Shown: positions 51,489-59,567 of the stretch, piece by piece
How the letters are laid out: every line of letters starts with the position of its first letter
Position numbering within the stretch: position 1 is the stretch's first letter
Assembly: GCA_046482435.1 (NCBI GenBank)
Contig: JAWOEZ010000023.1
Span: forward strand, 1-63,291
Source: Halanaerobiales bacterium
GTDB taxonomy: Bacteria; Bacillota; Halanaerobiia; Halanaerobiales; M55B127
Length of the DNA stretch: 63,291 nt
Direction of reading: 5' to 3'
Program-made: the position numbers and the translations under genes
Notes under the pieces: model-generated
What the model saw: only the letters and a program-made list of their open reading frames with translations
Databases searched by the model: none
Told to the model about the DNA's origin: nothing

Positions 51489-52178
51489 TTGGAAAACTTA
51501 AAACAAACTTTAGAAAAGTTTTTAAAAGAACAAAAAGAAAGATTAGCAAAAAGTACTTATAATAAATATGATGATGTAATCACTTTATTTGAACATTATT
51601 TGAATGGATATGGTTATCAATATTTAGATGAAGAAAATCATGAAACATATGAAAAAATGATGTATAGCAAAAATAAGCAATATTGTGAAGTGTTTACTAT
51701 TGAACAAATAGGTCCGGGTGAGCTAGATGAATTCATGACTTATTTTATGATTAGAAAAGTAATGAGCAGTAAAGAATTATTGAAAAACACTGGTACTGTC
51801 CTGAGGAAATTTATAAAGTGGTTAAAAGAAAATTCATATATAGATGATAAAAAATTTGATATATTATATAGTGAGGTAAATGAAAATAAAGATGACTTAC
51901 CTAAAGTGGAAGAACTAGCTGATCTGTTCTTTGAGAATGGTAGAAGAAACAGTTTTTATGAATATGAGGAATATGAAGAAGATAATTTTCAAATTTCTAA
52001 AATTGGAAAAGGAAAACTTTGGTTGGAGTCATTTATGGAGGAAAATAAAAATGTTGGGCCTGTAAAAGTAACTGAAGAAATAAGTTCCTTAGCCCAGGAA
52101 GGTTGGTTAGTTTATCTTGTATTAGGTAAGTCAGGGAAGAACTGGTATATTATTGAAAGTGGCAATGTATATCCTTAG
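51489..52178 (+). CDS. hypothetical protein; N-terminal half reminiscent of the SAM-like core-binding domain of tyrosine recombinases, no catalytic domain
   Basis: 229 aa, TTG start after GAGGGGG. FLKEQKERLAKSTYNKY...EFMTYFMIRKV...VLRKFIKWLKENSYI pattern. A decayed paralogue lies at 33095-33590. Confidence 0.6.
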   Translation: MENLKQTLEKFLKEQKERLAKSTYNKYDDVITLFEHYLNGYGYQYLDEENHETYEKMMYSKNKQYCEVFTIEQIGPGELDEFMTYFMIRKVMSSKELLKNTGTVLRKFIKWLKENSYIDDKKFDILYSEVNENKDDLPKVEELADLFFENGRRNSFYEYEEYEEDNFQISKIGKGKLWLESFMEENKNVGPVKVTEEISSLAQEGWLVYLVLGKSGKNWYIIESGNVYP

Positions 52179-53280: not shown

Positions 53281-53460
53281 CGTGGGCCAGCTTACTTTAC
53301 ATAATAAAGGATTCCCGTTATGCAAAAAACCGTGACTAATCTTCGAGACATACTCTCTGTCATAAAGTTTGTAATTACTTAGGTGAGTGTTTGGAAGCAA
53401 ACTTTGTGAAAGGCCTTGCGGCACTAGTAAGTCGGGAACCGTCGAGACGTTATTTGATAT
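53281..53460. repeat. post-ORF palindromic spacer, family 1 (element A)
   Basis: Starts 2 nt after the stop. Arms cataaagtttg (53361-53371) and caaactttgtg (53398-53408). Shares ctctgtcat..a..tttg with elements B and C. Ends with cgttatttga (53448-53457). Confidence 0.6.
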
Positions 53461-53511
53461 TTTACTGTAGAAGTTAAATGGAAAAAACTCCTGAAAATAT
53501 ATTTCAGAAGT

Positions 53512-53910
53512 TTAATCCGTCAATGGTGAGGTATTATGCTCTAACCATTTTACTAGTTGATTTTTATTTAATTTTTCTGCTGCAAGCTTAATCATTATTT
53601 TGTAAGTTTCTTTTTCTGAAGCAGTTATTTCAATACCATTTCTTTGCAGAAAAACATCCATAGCTACAAGAGCAATTCTTTTATTTCCATCTACAAAGGG
53701 ATGATTATTACACAGATGAAATCCATAAGCTGCAGCCATTTTAATTAGTGTATCATGCAAATATTTATCTTCGAAAGTGGTTTTAGGCAGTTTAAGTGCA
53801 GAATCAAGCAATTTTTTATCTCTAATTCCATACGTTCCACCATAAGTTTTGATTAGTTGGTTATGGAAAAATAAAATAATCTCTTTTGGAAGAAAGATTA
53901 TATTTTTCAA
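53512..53910 (-). CDS. doc: Doc (death-on-curing) Fic-fold toxin
   Basis: HPFVDGNKRIAL Doc-type motif, 132 aa. TTGA overlap with the upstream antitoxin gene. Confidence 0.9.
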   Translation of the reverse strand: MKNIIFLPKEIILFFHNQLIKTYGGTYGIRDKKLLDSALKLPKTTFEDKYLHDTLIKMAAAYGFHLCNNHPFVDGNKRIALVAMDVFLQRNGIEITASEKETYKIMIKLAAEKLNKNQLVKWLEHNTSPLTD

Positions 53911-54131
53911 TTTGATAATTCTTTCAAAGTATTTTTATATTTTTCATTTGTTTTATTAAATGACTTAGACCATTTTTCGAATTCGGGGTCATAAGGAGTT
54001 AATTTAAATCCGTCATTGTTTTCAATGACATGTAATTCTTCTCCTTCTTTTAGATTATATTTTTCCATAAGTTCTTTTGGTATTGTAAATCCGAAGCTAT
54101 TACCGACTTTACGGATTTTAATAGTTTTCAT
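53907..54131 (-). CDS. AbrB/MazE/SpoVT-type antitoxin
   Basis: IRKVGNSFGFTIPKELMEKYNLKEGEEL swapped-hairpin motif. ATG 54131 with GAGGTG 6 nt upstream (the track start GTG 54140 overlaps the RBS). Confidence 0.85.
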   Translation of the reverse strand: MKTIKIRKVGNSFGFTIPKELMEKYNLKEGEELHVIENNDGFKLTPYDPEFEKWSKSFNKTNEKYKNTLKELSN

Positions 54132-54216
54132 ATCAATCACCTCAATATTATTATAACATTTGTATTACATAATATGCAAGAAGAAAATAAAAGAAAAAAA
54201 CCACTTTTTAAGTAAG

Positions 54217-54369
54217 AGAGAAGACGGTACATAATACAGTGTTATCGTTACATCTGGAAACCAGCCTGCTTCGGATATCTTCTCTGTCATGACTTTTGCA
54301 TTTCTTTACAAAAGGCATGATAAAGAGCAAGTCAAGAATATTGGGGCCGTTATTTGAAATACGGTCAGC
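54217..54369. repeat. palindromic spacer, family 1 (element B)
   Basis: Arms tcatgacttttg (54287-54298) and caaaaggcatga (54309-54320), 11/12 paired. Outer agagaaga/tcttctct pair. Terminal ccgttatttgaaatacggtcagc (54347-54369). Confidence 0.6.
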
Positions 54370-54400
54370 ATTTTCATCTATGAAAGGGGTTTTAATATTA

Positions 54401-55330
54401 ATGAGTGCAGGTAGAAATGATCCTTGTCCTTGTGGTAGTGGTAAAAAATTTAAATATTGTTGTATAGATAAATTCAATTTTGAAAATAAGGAAAGAAAAG
54501 CTCATTGGTTTAAAAAAGAGATTGAGAACTATTCTATTGCAGAAATTATATTTAAACTGAGATATTTTGGTGTTGATGTTACTTATGATTCTTTTAAGGA
54601 AGAAATTAAATATTTTTATTCCGCTCAAGATTTATCTGAATATTGGTTTGATAAATATAATGTTAGTGCTACTGGTTTTGATGAAGATTTTATTTGGTTG
54701 GCAGCCTGGGTTCTTTGGGAAAGGATTCCAACTAAGATAATGTGTGATGAAGAGATAAGTAATATGATTAATAAAGGATATGATTTATCATCAGATGACA
54801 AATTATTTGATTGTTGTGATATATGGTTAAAAGCATGGAACGAGTTAAAAGCTCATTTTAAAGATGATAATATTAATTCTTTAAAAAAAGCGGATGAAAT
54901 TAATAAAGGAGACCAATATTTAAGCAATTGGTATCAATATTTAGATATGTATTTATCAAATGCTGGAATTAGAAATAAAGAATATTTTAAAAAGCGGATT
55001 AAATTTGTAAAAGATTTTCTTAATCTATTACCCGAAACAGAGGAAAAAAGAATAAAGGATATGCTAATAGCAGAAGCCGAGTCATATTTTGCAATAAAAA
55101 AGCTACAAAAAGGAGAAAAAAAGTTTAAAAATATAATAAGCAAATATCCAAATTGGGTATGGGGATATATAGGTTGGGGTGACATGTATGGACCATTTCG
55201 AATAAATAAAAATTTATCATCTGATTATAAAAAGGCAAAAAATATTTATGAAATGGCTTTTGATACAGATATAGATGATAAAGAAGAATTAGAGATATTA
55301 AATGAAAGGATAAATAGGCTTAAAAAGTAA
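54401..55330 (+). CDS. SEC-C motif domain protein
   Basis: MSAGRNDPCPCGSGKKFKYCC at the N-terminus. GAAAGGGG upstream of ATG 54401. The track ORF start 54296 runs through the spacer element. Confidence 0.8.
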   Translation: MSAGRNDPCPCGSGKKFKYCCIDKFNFENKERKAHWFKKEIENYSIAEIIFKLRYFGVDVTYDSFKEEIKYFYSAQDLSEYWFDKYNVSATGFDEDFIWLAAWVLWERIPTKIMCDEEISNMINKGYDLSSDDKLFDCCDIWLKAWNELKAHFKDDNINSLKKADEINKGDQYLSNWYQYLDMYLSNAGIRNKEYFKKRIKFVKDFLNLLPETEEKRIKDMLIAEAESYFAIKKLQKGEKKFKNIISKYPNWVWGYIGWGDMYGPFRINKNLSSDYKKAKNIYEMAFDTDIDDKEELEILNERINRLKK

Positions 55331-55470
55331 GCTGACCGTACGTTAGATGACATAGGATTGTCGTCATGACTTCTGTAATAAAGTTTGCAGGCAAACCAAT
55401 TATAGATATGGAAACGCAAGTTTTACGCCAGTTCCTGCGGAAACAAGCACGAGCGTGAATCCTGAGGATC
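55331..55470. repeat. post-ORF palindromic spacer, family 1 (element C)
   Basis: Begins at the first nt after the stop with gctgaccgta, the inverse of tacggtcagc at 54360-54369. Then cgttagatga, gtcgtcatgacttctgtaataaagtttgc, and gcaaac. Confidence 0.6.
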
Positions 55471-55514
55471 TTATATGAAATTAGTCCTTATTTAAATCCT
55501 CTTTAAAGAAAGGA

Positions 55515-56393
55515 ATGATTATGTTTTTAGAAGATATTTTAAAAAAGAAATTAGAAAATCGATGTAAAAACAATTTGAATAATTACGTTCAGTTGGTGGC
55601 TAATTGGTTTGCTTATGTAATCTTAAATAATAATAAACATGAAATAGATCATAGTCTTGATCCTCCTTGGGATAATTCAGGAATGATTACAGATATTGAC
55701 GAACAATTTGATTTAAATGATTATGCCACCTTTAATGATTTTATTGAAAGAGAATATACTGGTGAAAGTAATGCGAGTTATGTAAGTGGACACGGCATGT
55801 ATCATTATACTTATGAAGAACCATTTGAACAAATAACTCTAGAATGGTTAACCTCACAACTTTATTTAGTAATTAAAAGTTTAATTGAAAAAGAAAATAA
55901 GTATTTGGAAGAATGGGTTGAAAACAAAAATATTTCATTTAATATTAAAGCAGCTGATGACATAACAGATATTATTTTATTTGAAGATGTTGTTGGAGAC
56001 TTTTTTTATAGTTATGTTTGGGAAATAAAAGATAATGTATTAAATACACATCCTATTATTTTATTTAGCCGGGGGAAAGAAGAAGCAATAAATAAAATTA
56101 GAAAAGAAGAAATAAAACAGAAGGAGAGCCAAAAAGAGTTTCAAAAGAATAGAAAAAAAGCTGAATTTATATGGGAAAAGATTTTAAAAATGTATAAAAT
56201 AAAATATGGACATGAAATACCAAATAAAATTGAAAAGCCCTTATATGATAAGAAAGTAAAACAATTATTTATTGAATTATATAAAAATGGGGTTAATATT
56301 GAAGAAATTCAGAGTATAGGTAAGTTTTTAAGTTTTAGGTTTTCAAATTCCGTGAGTACATTAATCTCAAATTTCAATACACTTGAAGAGTGA
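55515..56393 (+). CDS. hypothetical protein (292 aa)
   Basis: Long ORF with an AAAGG RBS. No recognisable motif. Lys/Glu-rich helix near residue 200. Confidence 0.6.
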   Translation: MIMFLEDILKKKLENRCKNNLNNYVQLVANWFAYVILNNNKHEIDHSLDPPWDNSGMITDIDEQFDLNDYATFNDFIEREYTGESNASYVSGHGMYHYTYEEPFEQITLEWLTSQLYLVIKSLIEKENKYLEEWVENKNISFNIKAADDITDIILFEDVVGDFFYSYVWEIKDNVLNTHPIILFSRGKEEAINKIRKEEIKQKESQKEFQKNRKKAEFIWEKILKMYKIKYGHEIPNKIEKPLYDKKVKQLFIELYKNGVNIEEIQSIGKFLSFRFSNSVSTLISNFNTLEE

Positions 56394-56487
56394 AAAATGG
56401 GCTAATTTCATATAAAAGCAAGGTTTCAGTTTTCACTCCCTGTGGTCGCTTTATACAACATACTTAGTTTAAAAGGAGCTGAAGAAA

Positions 56488-57330
56488 GTGAGAAGACCAA
56501 AAGGTATTATGTTGATAGTTATATGTTTGTTTATTTTTTGGTCTGCTAGTATTATTGCTGAAAGTAAAATTATAAATAATAATACAATAGTATTTAAAAA
56601 TGTTAATATTATTCCTATGAATAAAAAAGGAATATTAAAAAATCGTTCAGTTATAATAAAAGATGAGATAATACAAAAAATTACTAGTAAGGGAAATTTA
56701 AATATTAATAAAGAAGCATATGTTATAGATGCTACTGGTAAGTATTTAATGCCTGGGTTATCAGATATGCATGTGCATATTAGAAACAAATCAGATTTAA
56801 AATTATTTTTAGCAAATGGAATTACAACTGTAAGGAATATGGCAGGACACAAAACACATTTAATATATAAAAAGAAAATAAATAATGGTGAAATTATAGG
56901 TCCAAATATTATTACTACTACTCCATTACTAGATGGTAATCCTCCTATTTATCCTCACGCAGATGTTTTATCAAATACTAAAGTAGCAAGAGAAACTGTG
57001 AGGGAATATAAAGAAAAGGGATATGACTATATTAAGGTATATGAAAAATTAAACAAAGAAGTTTATGATGCAATTATTGAAGAGGCTAAAAGACAAAATA
57101 TAGAAGTAGTTGGCCATGTACCAGACAAAGTTGGAATTAGAAATGTAATTTCATCAGGTCAAGTTTCAATAGAAGTTGGAAAGAAAACAGATATTGTTTT
57201 ATTAAACAAAAATCCTTTAAAAGATATAAAAAATACCAAAAGTATTGAGGGAGTATTAATAAGAGGAAAATGGTTGAATAAATCTTTTATTCAACATATG
57301 TTAGAAGAGATACCGCAAGACTGGTGGTAA
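56488..57330 (+). CDS. amidohydrolase-family protein carrying an apparent in-frame internal deletion
   Basis: Signal/TM, then LMPGLSDMHVHI metal motif...VVGHVPD...GQVSIE, joined directly to the C-terminal VGKKTDIVLLNKNPL motif. 280 aa, whereas such enzymes are typically about 400+ aa. Confidence 0.65.
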   Translation: MRRPKGIMLIVICLFIFWSASIIAESKIINNNTIVFKNVNIIPMNKKGILKNRSVIIKDEIIQKITSKGNLNINKEAYVIDATGKYLMPGLSDMHVHIRNKSDLKLFLANGITTVRNMAGHKTHLIYKKKINNGEIIGPNIITTTPLLDGNPPIYPHADVLSNTKVARETVREYKEKGYDYIKVYEKLNKEVYDAIIEEAKRQNIEVVGHVPDKVGIRNVISSGQVSIEVGKKTDIVLLNKNPLKDIKNTKSIEGVLIRGKWLNKSFIQHMLEEIPQDWW

Positions 57331-57440
57331 TATTGTCTAGGACGTCGTATAAAATAGGATTTTCGTTACGCTTAAGTTCGATCACTTTATTGGAAAGTAA
57401 CGTCGAAAATTCTAGAAACGTTTTTAGACATCCTAATATT
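57329..57440. repeat. post-ORF palindromic spacer, family 2
   Basis: Overlaps the stop codon. Paired segments: aatatt/aatatt, gtcta/tagac, acgt/acgt, attttc+gttac with gtaac+(gtc bulge)+gaaaat. Shares gtcgtataaaat and tttattggaaagtaac with the 58064-58179 element. Confidence 0.65.
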
Positions 57441-57486
57441 ATGTTTTTAATATAATTTTCATAAAAAAATGATAAGAGGGAATATA

Positions 57487-57954
57487 ATGGAGTATATTAA
57501 ATTCATCTTGTTTTTTATTTTGGCACATTCGGTTTCATACACAATAGCAGGTGCCATAGCCTTATCTATTAGTAAAGATATTTATGAAAGTAAAAGTAGG
57601 CATTGTGATTTTTTACGGGATATGTCAGATGAAGAAGAAAGCAAGTATGTTTCTATTTATTTTATACCTGCTCAAATTTTAAGAGGAGCATTAATGGCAA
57701 TGGTACTTTTCCCACTATTAAGTTCTATAGCAGCCCTTTCTTTTGGGATAAGTATTATTTTTTTTGGTAGTTTAATGTTTGTTTATACACATATAGCCGC
57801 TGCATCACCTTTTATTGATAATATTGAGGGCTATGTTTATTTTAAAAAGAATTATTTAATGAAAAAATATTTTATAAAATTCCAGTTAGAAATGGTTTTA
57901 TATAGTATTTTATTTGGTTTGTTTATGACTGTTCTTATGGGTTTTGTTTTCTAA
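57487..57954 (+). CDS. small integral membrane protein (4 TM)
   Basis: 155 aa from ATG 57487 (AGAGGG upstream). Four hydrophobic spans. No family recognised. Confidence 0.6.
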   Translation: MEYIKFILFFILAHSVSYTIAGAIALSISKDIYESKSRHCDFLRDMSDEEESKYVSIYFIPAQILRGALMAMVLFPLLSSIAALSFGISIIFFGSLMFVYTHIAAASPFIDNIEGYVYFKKNYLMKKYFIKFQLEMVLYSILFGLFMTVLMGFVF

Positions 57955-58063
57955 AAATAGTTTTTTGTATATTATAAAAATAGCTCTTAATTTTTAGATA
58001 ACTCATATTTTAAATTTATTTTCTAAAACATTATGTTCCATAATATTATGTTTTGAAAATGAC

Positions 58064-58179
58064 ACATGTCGTATAAAATTAGCTTAGCGACATATGAGTT
58101 TTACTAGAATGTTAGAAATGACTTACATCAGGTATTTACGAATAAGATTGATTTTATTGGAAGTAAACCCAGATGTCGC
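58064..58179. repeat. palindromic spacer, family 2
   Basis: Arms gcgacatatgagttttact (58087-58105) and agtaaacccagatgtcgc (58162-58179). A small hairpin atgtcg/cgacat lies upstream. Confidence 0.65.
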
Positions 58180-58210
58180 CAAGTGCAAGGACTTTACAAG
58201 ATATGATTCT

Positions 58211-58316
58211 ATAAACATGTTCATTAGATGGATGAATGAATATATTTATGGTAAAATGAATAGATTTATGGTATAATAAACATAGTCATAAACAAAGCAA
58301 ATGAATATGTTTATAG
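58211..58316 (+). promoter_or_regulatory. putative fic promoter flanked by four copies of a 15-16-nt motif ATGAATAKRTTTATRG
   Basis: Direct copies at 58236-58251, 58256-58271 and 58301-58316, plus an inverted copy at 58211-58225. Extended -10 TGGTATAAT at 58269-58277. Confidence 0.5.
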
Positions 58317-58332
58317 AGGAGTGAATACATTT

Positions 58333-59379
58333 ATGATGTCATTTAGAGATGAGAAACTTAAGACTGTAGCGATTCCTATGAATATAGTCAAACTAATTGG
58401 TAAGATAAATGAATATAAGGGAAAACAAAACTTATATTTAGACCAAGCACCACAGGTATTAGAGAAGTTAAAAGAAGCAGCGATTGTTCAAAGTACCAAA
58501 TCTTCTAATAGTATTGAGGGGATTGTTATTACTGATAAGCGATTAAAAGAAATAATGAAAGATGATACTATGCCTAATGATCGTTCTGAAGGTGAGATTG
58601 CAGGATATAGAGATGTATTAAATAGTATTCATACTTCTTATGATGCTATCCCTATAAATACAAGTATAATTTTACAATTTCATAAAAATTTATATAAGTT
58701 TGTTTCAGCTGAGGGTGGGAAATGGAAAAATCAAGATAATGTGATTGAAGAGATATTACCTAATGGTGAAAGATATGTTAGATTTAGGCCTTTATCTGCA
58801 GCTGAAACTCCAAGAGCTATGGAAGAATTATGTGATTATTTAAACCGAGCGATGAAAGAAGAGAATATTGAACCACTAATATTAATAGGAGCTTTTGTTT
58901 TAGACTTTTTGAGCATTCATCCTTTTAATGATGGAAACGGACGAATGGCAAGGTTATTGACTTTATTATTATTATATAAATATAATTATAAGGTTGGGAG
59001 ATATATAAGTTTAGAAAAAATCATTGAAGAGAGCAAATCAAATTATTATGAAGTATTAAAGAAATCTTCAGTAGGTTGGCATGAAGGCCACCATAATCTT
59101 TTTATTTGGTTAGATTATTTTTTAGGTACTATATTAGCCGCATATAAAGAATTTGAAGATAGAGTAGGATTAGTTAGAAACAAAAGAGGCAATAAAAGTT
59201 ATAGGGTTGAACAAGCTATAAAAAGCACATTAGGAACTTTTGAGAAGGAAGATATTAGAAATACATGTCCGGACGTTTCAGAATCTACAATTAATAGAGT
59301 TTTTAAAAAGTTAAAAGAAGAAGGAGTAATTGAGTTATTAGGTAAAGGTCGTAATGCAAAGTGGAAAAGATTAGAATAA
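58333..59379 (+). CDS. Fic family protein (Fic_N + Fic + C-terminal wHTH)
   Basis: HPFNDGNGRMARLL active-site motif. N-terminal SNSIEG fits the inhibitory (S/T)xxxE(G/N) helix. The track start is GTG 58321; the first in-frame ATG is 58333. Confidence 0.9.
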   Translation: MMSFRDEKLKTVAIPMNIVKLIGKINEYKGKQNLYLDQAPQVLEKLKEAAIVQSTKSSNSIEGIVITDKRLKEIMKDDTMPNDRSEGEIAGYRDVLNSIHTSYDAIPINTSIILQFHKNLYKFVSAEGGKWKNQDNVIEEILPNGERYVRFRPLSAAETPRAMEELCDYLNRAMKEENIEPLILIGAFVLDFLSIHPFNDGNGRMARLLTLLLLYKYNYKVGRYISLEKIIEESKSNYYEVLKKSSVGWHEGHHNLFIWLDYFLGTILAAYKEFEDRVGLVRNKRGNKSYRVEQAIKSTLGTFEKEDIRNTCPDVSESTINRVFKKLKEEGVIELLGKGRNAKWKRLE

Positions 59380-59380
59380 A

Positions 59381-59532
59381 GTTGAGGTACTTCGTCTAAT
59401 ACGACTTTAGCGACATCTAAGTTGTTGTAAGAAGCTGCCGAGAAGACTTATATTAACTGTATTATTTTCAAGGAAAAGATCTGTTTAATCAGAGTAAGCT
59501 CAGAAGTTGCTAAGTCCAGGGAGGTTAGCCAA
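59381..59532. repeat. post-ORF palindromic spacer, family 2
   Basis: Starts 2 nt after the stop with GTTGAGG and ends with AGCCAAC. Inner arms gactttagcgacatctaag (59403-59421) and ctcagaagttgctaagtc (59499-59516), about 15/18 paired with one bulge. Confidence 0.65.
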
Positions 59533-59567
59533 CAGGAACATATGAATTTTTGCTTAGGGGGAAAGAT

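Follow-up and report, generated by a model that had tools for sequence, protein, structure and literature searches.

Remains of a probable gene-cassette array in a Halanaerobiales genome point to an integron-like system associated with a XerA-like recombinase

The stretch from 53281 to 55480 of a Halanaerobiales contig very probably belongs to an orphan array of gene cassettes, now in decay, from an integron-like system native to the Halanaerobiales. It lies in a window of 63,291 nucleotides (contig JAWOEZ010000023.1 of assembly GCA_046482435.1). The system is not a canonical integron: an IntI was not found, and the recombinase associated with it in related genomes is XerA-like. For the window itself the message is more modest. 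Its G+C-rich spacers, a toxin-antitoxin (TA) pair in reverse orientation and a pair of inverted 10-mers can be read as the remains of cassette ends.

Three spacers of this stretch, here called A, B and C, are diverged and partly decayed members of one family of attC-like sites of 135-165 nt. They align end to end with 46 copies of a C-type and 14 copies of an A-type subfamily. Sites were called with a covariance model of our own (R1), not with the attC model of IntegronFinder. By this model the family is present in 36 of 72 genomes and 14 of 22 genera of the Halanaerobiales. This order of salt-loving anaerobes includes Halanaerobium. Hundreds of homologous copies occur in relatives, at least 40 matches in one of them. 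All copies are found in co-oriented arrays, one per gene boundary. The consensus reads C-N-N-ATAAC (R'') ... AC-GTTAT-N-N-G (R') and thereby has terminal boxes of the attC type; the part between them has a side hairpin and an asymmetric internal loop that is conserved. In the window, A, B, C and three weaker R1 sites span 53295-59534, and R1 also picks up the spacers that a preliminary description had called "Family-2", all on one strand. Elsewhere in the same genome just two weak matches on small contigs were detected. Two attCs seem to be combined in some sites (G020b_7250 and, by comparison with G003, the 3' arm of A), which suggests homologous exchange between the repeats besides site-specific events.

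Site A (53295..53459, plus strand) belongs to the long A-type subfamily, of which 13 copies in five other genomes align with it; it ends a cassette with a DUF3024 gene. R1 finds it with 85.7 bits (E = 6e-20) on the minus strand, which is the predicted folding (bottom) strand. Its R'' equivalent, ACATAAT at 53299-53305, has AAC mutated to AAT; its R' box is GTTATTTG at 53449-53456, with a presumed crossover at 53449|53450. Site B (54225..54359, plus strand; 27.2 bits, E = 6e-5) is strongly decayed and has a shortened centre. It shows the same R'' equivalent, ACATAAT, at 54229-54235 and the same R' box, GTTATTTG, at 54349-54356, the crossover presumably being 54349|54350. Site C (55341..55480, plus strand; 112 bits, E = 1e-26) is of the C-type, the commonest subfamily in Halanaerobium-like genomes, and aligns with 45 copies from G013, G020, G029 and G036. 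Here the R'' equivalent is TAGATGAC at 55344-55351, AAC being mutated to GAC, and the R' equivalent is CTTATATG at 55470-55477, where GTT has become CTT. The triplets are mutated in the R'' of all three sites and in the R' of C.

Much of what the preliminary description had seen in these spacers stands. Its quoted strings are all in place, and the block ctctgtcat(a/g)a..tttg, which it had noticed in A, B and C, occurs in all three and is one arm of the central stem of the family. The hairpins drawn for A (10 of 11 pairs plus one G.T) and for B (54287-54298 with 54309-54320; 11 of 12) are as described. The local hairpin proposed for C, 55383-55388 with 55391-55396, exists, but the pairing that is conserved in the family is that of 55375-55388 with 55416-55428 around a loop of about 27 nt. 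The 10-mer CGTTAKWTGA is found three times in the window, as compared to 0.39 expected, a number reached by 2 of 100 shuffles. Its copies in A and B are homologous. The third, CGTTAGATGA at 55341-55350, is situated on the opposite, R'' arm of C and had been mistaken for their positional homologue, which is TCTTATATGA at 55469-55478.

The common structure of the family is well conserved. In the family alignment 94.7% of the cells are paired, and compensatory changes are seen in 17 of 42 pairs; none of 500 shuffles reached this level, and slid controls paired to 31-44%. In silico, the hairpin displays an asymmetric 5x1 internal loop and single-base bulges. With DNA parameters the bottom strand is computed to be the more stable one in 51 of 56 sites (-29.3 versus -24.7 kcal/mol); it contains conserved G.T pairs and is antisense to the genes.

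The arrays of the relatives obey a simple rule: the bases that follow G|TTAT in one site correspond, as reverse complement, to those that precede ..ATAAC in the next. Among 50 adjacent pairs, 56% show perfect complementarity of the three variable core bases of R'(n) to R''(n+1); the figure is 17% for random pairs and 19% when a site is compared with its own R''. In the 14-nt extension at least nine matches are seen in 38% of adjacent pairs in relatives and in 2% of random ones, and all 24 cognate junctions have A/G at position 11. As judged from sequence, this end complementarity is the footprint of integron cassettes.

Cassettes also turn up in differing neighbourhoods. G020 has three copies of a cassette of 460 nt, which adjoin two different neighbours on the upstream side and three on the downstream side; on the left side the identity of the copies begins at GTTAT, and on the right side two copies with the same attC diverge just past GTTAT. 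In G003, which belongs to the same genus as the window's genome, site A and the TA cassette are separated by one extra cassette. Because the 3' arm of A looks like a mixture of the two G003 sites, the exact crossover of this indel cannot be placed.

In the window, the TA cassette (53450..54349, minus strand) is reverse-oriented and closes with site B. It encodes a Doc/Fic toxin (53512-53910, minus strand; Pfam Fic, 2.8e-18) and an AbrB/MazE-type antitoxin (53907-54140, minus strand; Pfam MazE_antitoxin, 2e-11), preceded by the pair's own promoter region (54141-54224, minus strand). The same module, 75-80% identical, is found between attC-like sites in G018, G033, G036, G024 and G013. In the window its ends, as compared across the A-to-B junction, lack complementarity (core 1/3, extension 3/14). 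The motifs ACCGTC and GACGGT, once considered as possible flanks of the TA pair, match by chance: ACCGTC falls upstream of the crossover, within site A itself.

The SEC-C cassette (54350..55470, plus strand) comprises 1121 nt, the 3' part being site C. Its gene (54401-55330, plus strand) encodes 309 amino acids with an N-terminal SEC-C zinc motif (Pfam SEC-C, 1.6e-9). The cassette starts with TTATTTGAAA, followed by TACGGTCAGC (54360..54369, plus strand). The latter is the exact reverse complement of GCTGACCGTA (55331..55340, plus strand), just 5' of the R'' box of C; these inverted 10-mers, already recognized in the preliminary description, are the two arms of an outer stem. A perfect 10-mer inverted repeat within 40 x 40 nt was obtained in 0.09% of shuffles. 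Read in register, the cassette ends match at 11 of 14 positions, the family-invariant A/G position 11 included, which is reached by 2.5e-5 of shuffles; in the core box 1 of 3 matches.

The early idea of an excisable SEC-C module proved right in kind. The sites are of the integron type, the crossover would be at G|TTA, and the 10-mers would pair upon circularisation, as borne out by the rule from 50 junctions, the breaks at GTTAT and the attI-like site (see below). The geometry had to be revised. The cassette extends from 54350 to 55470 instead of 54349 to 55342, and its 3' junction is 55470|55471, where GTT is mutated to CTT. Nor would the 10-mers form a small hairpin with GTTA in the loop; they would close the entire attC hairpin of about 150 nt. 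A check proposed at that stage was to look for the SEC-C module elsewhere with the same termini. In the same-genus genomes examined no other copy in cassette form was found; the homologues in G007 (79%), G005 and G008 (66-67%) reside in ordinary contexts free of attC-like sites.

The next cassette (55471..56416, plus strand) contains a gene for 292 amino acids (55515-56393). TTATATGAAATTAGTCC at its 5' end complements 56395-56416, directly ahead of a short site that has decayed. The inverted repeat I13 pairs 55471-55501 with 56385-56415 (81%); read in register by eye, 18 of 22 positions match.

In at least six genomes (G036, G047, G050, G049, G013 and G020) a recombinase gene stands directly upstream of the array and is co-oriented with it; in G020 an insertion with a transposase-like ORF interrupts it. 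Every one of the 10 genomes that reach 15 sites has the gene or a remnant; it is missing from four genomes in the range of 5-10 sites. Its occurrence goes along with that of at least five sites (Fisher p = 2e-5). The link between recombinase and array is one of association. Behind the stop codon of the recombinase, about 90 conserved nucleotides end at A-GTTAT in 10 genomes. There the sequences diverge into different first cassettes, as would be expected for an attI.

By sequence, the enzyme of about 360 amino acids is XerA-like. That of G036 scores 226.3 bits with the XerA-like family NF040815, i.e. above the curated cut-off of 220. The IntI model TIGR02249 yields 194.6 bits in two pieces, its cut-off being 265, and profile positions 181-230 remain unmatched. 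Aligned to VchIntIA (2a3v), the enzyme has 18 residues in place of 56, which means that the IntI-specific insertion is absent; its alignment to XerA (4a8e) is contiguous. An additional N-terminal region of about 85 residues has no Pfam match. Related recombinases also head attC-like arrays in Desulfitobacterium sp. Sab5 and in an Ignavibacteriota MAG; Bacteroidota, too, have related proteins.

The window's genome, which is 92% complete, contains neither an orthologue of the array recombinase nor, by nhmmer, an attI-like sequence, and contig C64 is devoid of any tyrosine recombinase. Its array is therefore considered an orphan relic. With recombinase and attI missing from the assembly and mutations in the core triplets, the cassettes with the TA pair and with SEC-C have probably become fixed. 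The "core-binding-like" ORF at 51489-52178 was considered as an IntI remnant and discarded; it matches no integrase family.

Could the array be the relic of a canonical integron, a CALIN in the strict sense, with a true IntI unassembled or acting in trans and the XerA-like neighbour being incidental? Classical attCs have the same AAC/GTT core, hairpin architecture and cassette rule, the incomplete genome leaves room for a missing gene, and a few Firmicutes are reported to contain CALINs (Neron 2022). However, no protein scores above the TIGR02249 cut-off either in the window's genome or in 10 array-bearing relatives, among them four single-contig genomes of 99% completeness. Moreover, the XerA-like gene repeatedly heads the array and is followed by the attI-like site that ends at GTTAT. 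We consider a canonical relic very unlikely.

Alternatively, the spacers might be structured RNAs, such as 3'-UTR stabilisers, terminators or sRNAs, or self-spreading REP/MITE-like repeats that have nothing to do with gene mobility. Indeed, they are richer in G+C (0.32-0.39) than the genes (about 0.27), sit just after stop codons and form hairpins. Yet Rfam yields no family match across the window at gathering thresholds, and the stabler strand, on which the conserved G.T pairs occur, runs antisense to the genes. The complementarity connects the end of one site with the start of the next about 1 kb away, which a self-contained RNA or MITE does not need. Terminal inverted repeats and target duplications, as looked for in MITE or REP elements, were not seen, and the copies are confined to co-oriented arrays at gene boundaries. 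This explanation is very unlikely.

Mere chance in AT-rich intergenic DNA, to which one might ascribe the likeness of A, B and C and the inverted 10-mers because BLASTN against the window's genome retrieves each element only by itself and whole-spacer folding is weak (MFE z-scores of -0.6 to -1.7 against mononucleotide shuffles), can be dismissed: the copies are too diverged for BLASTN, the folding signal emerges only with the family alignment, and the R1 E-values, the many copies in relatives and the shuffle tests of the 10-mers (p = 2.5e-5 and 9e-4) already refute it.

If the decayed array is read as integron-like, the mechanism may be pictured as follows. Each site, 135-165 nt long, is an imperfect hairpin, of which the bottom, i.e. 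non-coding, strand is predicted to fold best, and a cassette would start with the TT of an R' box and end with the G of the R' box that follows. Upon excision the cassette ends would be joined, whereby R'' could pair with the cassette's own R', and in the excised circle a further 10-14 bp could form outside the core pair; in the SEC-C cassette these would be the inverted 10-mers. In relatives with intact arrays, cassettes would enter at the attI-like site, about 90 nt downstream of the co-oriented XerA-like recombinase. The array-head recombinase presumably catalyses these reactions. It may act on the folded bottom strand, and cleavage probably occurs exactly between G and TT.

From here one may go a step further. 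The Halanaerobiales could carry a second kind of integron, characterized by a XerA-like integrase without the insertion but with a novel N-terminal region, by G|TTAT and by sites folded from the bottom strand; where IntI recognizes extrahelical bases through its I2 helix, this system would rely on fixed mismatches and on a long outer stem formed in the circle only. Perhaps other lineages, such as those of Desulfitobacterium sp. Sab5 and the Ignavibacteriota MAG, have it too. We regard the case for and against this proposal as evenly balanced. If it holds true, it would account in part for the reports that Firmicutes-like lineages have next to no integrons, and it would be relevant to the origin of integrons from Xer systems. 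The arrays obey the classical G|TT rule, yet stand behind a recombinase without the IntI-specific domain. Such arrays exist in halophilic anaerobes that can be cultured, for instance Halanaerobium, so the question is directly testable with isolates and standard recombination assays. In the literature on integrons in Halanaerobium or attC in Halanaerobiales we found nothing relevant.

Sedentary chromosomal integrons are among the closest known systems. Like the superintegron of Vibrio cholerae with its VCR attCs of about 125 nt, the Halanaerobiales have long, co-oriented arrays of single-gene cassettes, reverse-oriented TA cassettes that bring their own promoters, and long, branched, highly similar attC hairpins with an AAC/GTT core and an apparent crossover at G|TT. 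In both, the bases at the 5' end of a cassette complement the R'' box of the attC that belongs to it, folding favours the bottom strand, and attI adjoins the recombinase gene. There are also differences. The Halanaerobiales recombinase lacks the IntI-specific insertion (18 residues against 56 in VchIntIA), its gene is co-oriented with the cassettes and placed upstream of them, the R box is GTTAT-N-N-G instead of GTTRRRY, and the stem continues for 10-14 bp past the R boxes with an invariant position that is A.C in the top and G.T in the bottom strand.

By sequence, the enzyme resembles those of the Xer systems, among them XerCD with the attP of the CTX phage and archaeal XerA/dif; the action of a Xer enzyme on a folded single-stranded substrate has a precedent. 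A dif-like site of 28 bp was not identified, and the Halanaerobiales sites are attC-type hairpins that bound cassettes in arrays.

The direction of the recombinase gene is not without parallel. In the "inverted-integrase" integrons of Treponema, Chlorobi and Planctomycetes the integrase gene is transcribed the same way as the cassettes. Archaeal integrons, too, have an integrase co-directional with the cassettes and a putative attI immediately downstream of intI (Ghaly et al. 2022, PMC9668308). The Halanaerobiales thus share the direction with both groups and the position of attI with the archaeal one, whereas the integrases of both are reported to have the IntI-specific additional domain (PMC9668308) that is absent here. 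According to the papers that cite Messier and Roy 2001 (PMC4889954, PMC9668308), this domain is described as necessary for activity. Integron surveys define the system by it and report almost no integrons in Firmicutes-like bacteria (Neron 2022; PMC4889954); in the supplementary tables of IntegronFinder 2.0, Acetohalobium appears with 0 elements.

The window itself, with at least three attC-type sites about 1 kb apart on an integrase-less contig of an integrase-less assembly, looks like a CALIN (Cury et al. 2016, PMC4889954), defined as at least two attC within 4 kb and no integrase nearby, with the sites being those of our own model rather than IntegronFinder's. Tyrosine recombinases without intI_Cterm were seen by the same authors next to fewer than three attC sites and were judged not to be IntI (PMC4889954). 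In contrast, the domain-less recombinase of the Halanaerobiales heads arrays of 15 to at least 40 sites, which suggests that surveys keyed on intI_Cterm undercount the systems of cassette capture.

The rightmost quarter of the 63-kb contig is made up of small genes of unrelated function, almost all on the plus strand. They include those for a GNAT acetyltransferase, DUF3024, a SEC-C-motif protein, amidohydrolases, a Fic protein and a reverse-oriented Doc/AbrB toxin-antitoxin (TA) pair. Spacer A (53295-53459) follows the DUF3024 gene, B (54225-54359) the TA pair and C (55341-55480) the SEC-C gene. The G+C content of these spacers is 0.32-0.39, versus about 0.27 in the genes. All strings quoted in the preliminary description are present in the sequence and correctly placed.

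BLAST within the window's own genome revealed no link between A, B and C, and Rfam has no family for them. Comparison of the 2.2-kb region with 40 related genomes yielded numerous copies of C with about 80% identity and a length of about 135 nt, clustered as arrays; copies of A were also found there, in other arrays. A, B and C are members of one large family, of which 46 C-type and 14 A-type copies were aligned. The shared architecture, from 5' to 3', comprises a variable outer stem, C-N-N-ATAAC (the inverse-core box R''), a conserved arm ..GGGATTGGCGTCATGCCTTCTGTCATAAAGCTTGC, a variable loop, a return arm with a side hairpin, and ..AATCCCAGGGAC-GTTAT-N-N-G-A-M-A-T with the 3' core box R'. 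In the C-type and A-type alignments the block ctctgtcat..tttg, described earlier as a hairpin arm, is an arm of the family's central stem; in A and B, the CGTTATTTGA box is R'. The supposed third box, CGTTAGATGA at 55341, is not R'; it aligns to the R'' arm (TAGATGAC versus the consensus CATATAAC). C has its true R' at 55469-55478, TCTTATATGA, in which GTT has become CTT by mutation.

The structure of the sites is real and strand-biased. A 42-pair structure was specified on a bottom-strand alignment of 48 sequences: 94.7% of the cells are paired, 17 of the 42 pairs show compensatory changes, and none of 500 shuffles reached the observed values. With slid partners, pairing falls to 31-44%. Under DNA energy parameters, 51 of 56 sites fold more stably as the bottom strand than as the top strand. 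Two of the pairs are conserved G.T wobbles on the bottom strand, which on the top strand become A.C mismatches.

A covariance model of the family gives A 86, B 27 and C 112 bits. The weaker "Family-2" sites at 57343-57430, 58067-58203 and 59390-59534 score 24, 20 and 16 bits with the same attC-like model. Because these spacers match the model and all lie on the strand of A, B and C, the stretch from 53.3 to 59.5 kb reads as a single array of decayed sites of one superfamily. Beyond the window, the model finds just two weak matches in the same genome, about 27 bits each and both on small contigs (G000:C62:518-657 and G000:C67:882-994; loci L128 and L129). These may be pieces either of this array or of a second array. 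Contig C62 also has a short tyrosine-recombinase fragment with a TGA stop.

Integron crossover occurs at G|TT, so the bases after GTT are already part of the next cassette and hence complement the R'' box in the attC which that cassette carries. This rule was tested on 50 adjacent site pairs against random pairs and the site's own R''. The three variable core bases were perfectly complementary in 56% of adjacent pairs, 17% of random pairs and 19% of own-R'' comparisons; at least 9 matches in the 14-nt outward extension were seen in 38%, 2% and 3%, respectively. Even rare core variants pair exactly (GTTAGCCG with CGGCTAAC, GTTATCGG with CCGATAAC). At position 11 of the extension, 24 of 24 cognate junctions read A on one side and G on the other, which makes a G.T pair in the bottom strand alone, like the conserved wobbles. 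A 460-nt cassette is present three times in the related genome G020, with differing neighbours. On its left, identity begins exactly at GTTAT; on its right, two copies with the same attC diverge directly after GTTAT.

The inverted 10-mers around the SEC-C gene had been proposed as paired cassette ends. In the SEC-C cassette (54350-55470) they indeed make up the extension of the outer stem, 11/14 in register, the invariant position-11 mismatch included; shuffling gave p = 2.5e-5 for the in-register match, and 9e-4 when a perfect 10-mer anywhere in 40 x 40 nt was counted. The following cassette also obeys the rule: from 55471 on, its first bases complement 56395-56416 (18/22, read by eye), and the inverted repeat I13 spans the same arms. 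The TA cassette (53450-54349) differs. In-register comparison of its ends in the window showed no pairing, and the 6-mers flanking the TA pair are due to chance. In G013, G018, G024, G033 and G036 the same module forms a normal cassette flanked by attC sites; in G003, of the same genus, one additional cassette separates an A-like site from the identical TA cassette start. The SEC-C module was not met elsewhere in the genus with the same termini; its homologues in the genus (G007:C67:3604-4557, G005:C116:1143-2010, G008:C42:14425-15305) sit in ordinary contexts. These are conserved, AT-rich and without attC-like sites. Homology to the window copy extends from the ribosome-binding region (54376) to the stop codon (55331), with the cassette termini outside. 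A resident gene could have given rise to the cassette, or the cassette to the resident gene.

Canonical IntI was found neither in the window's genome nor in 10 array-bearing relatives. The gene immediately upstream of the arrays, and co-oriented with them, encodes a tyrosine recombinase of some 360 aa in G036, G047, G050, G049, G013 and G020. The gene or a remnant occurs in 10/10 genomes with at least 15 sites (with the threshold at 5 sites, Fisher p = 2e-5); by this association the recombinase has a putative role in the system. In the single-contig G020 it is split by an insertion with a transposase-like HTH ORF (L033, G020:C1:1188391-1190730); despite this, G020 has the most sites (at least 40) and duplicated cassette blocks. 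Past the recombinase stop codon, some 90 nt are conserved up to A-GTTAT in 10 genomes; from there on the sequences diverge into differing first cassettes, some of them internal to other arrays. The conserved region is an attI-like site. Very short cassettes of 458-467 nt with near-identical starts TTAT..GCAATAATAAC..CATCAGCAAATAAGAGAAAAAGATAA.. (L034 and L032, G020:C1:1518000-1536000 and 1165000-1185000) recur many times, both inside single genomes and from one genome to another; they are attI-proximal in G036, G047 and G029.

In the 92%-complete assembly of the window's genome, neither an orthologue of the recombinase nor the attI-like sequence was found, and several window sites have mutated AAC and GTT triplets. 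The decay to AAT in A is old, since G003 has the same variant. We conclude that the window's array is an orphan and decaying. The body of A matches the first G003 site (L037:1461-1625) by 91%; its last 15 nt or so before GTT are closer to the second (L037:2367-2530), a pattern that departs from clean G|TT exchange. A similar hybrid attC is seen in G020. Such hybrid-looking sites suggest homologous exchange between repeats, besides site-specific events.

A recombinase match titled Halanaerobium congolense is 86% identical. Downstream of recombinases with 47-48% identity to the Halanaerobiales enzyme, in Desulfitobacterium sp. Sab5 (L043:11900-20960) and an Ignavibacteriota MAG (L053:11100-20190), lie arrays whose sites are 55-130 nt long and of the type ..C-N-N-ATAAC...ACGTTAT-N-N-G; these enzymes, too, apparently lack the IntI insertion. 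The platform may thus reach well beyond Halanaerobiales.

A literature search on integrons in Halanaerobiales found no paper. According to Cury et al. 2016 (PMC4889954) and Neron et al. 2022, Firmicutes are essentially without complete integrons, and recombinases without intI_Cterm near attC sites, which adjoined fewer than 3 of them, were classed as not IntI. Ghaly et al. 2022 (PMC9668308) stressed the additional domain as defining. The first 85 or so residues of the array-head recombinase match no Pfam family. The enzyme passes the XerA-like NCBIfam model but fails the integron-integrase model; its alignment to XerA structures is contiguous, and 18 of its residues stand in place of the 56 that form the IntI-specific region in VchIntIA.
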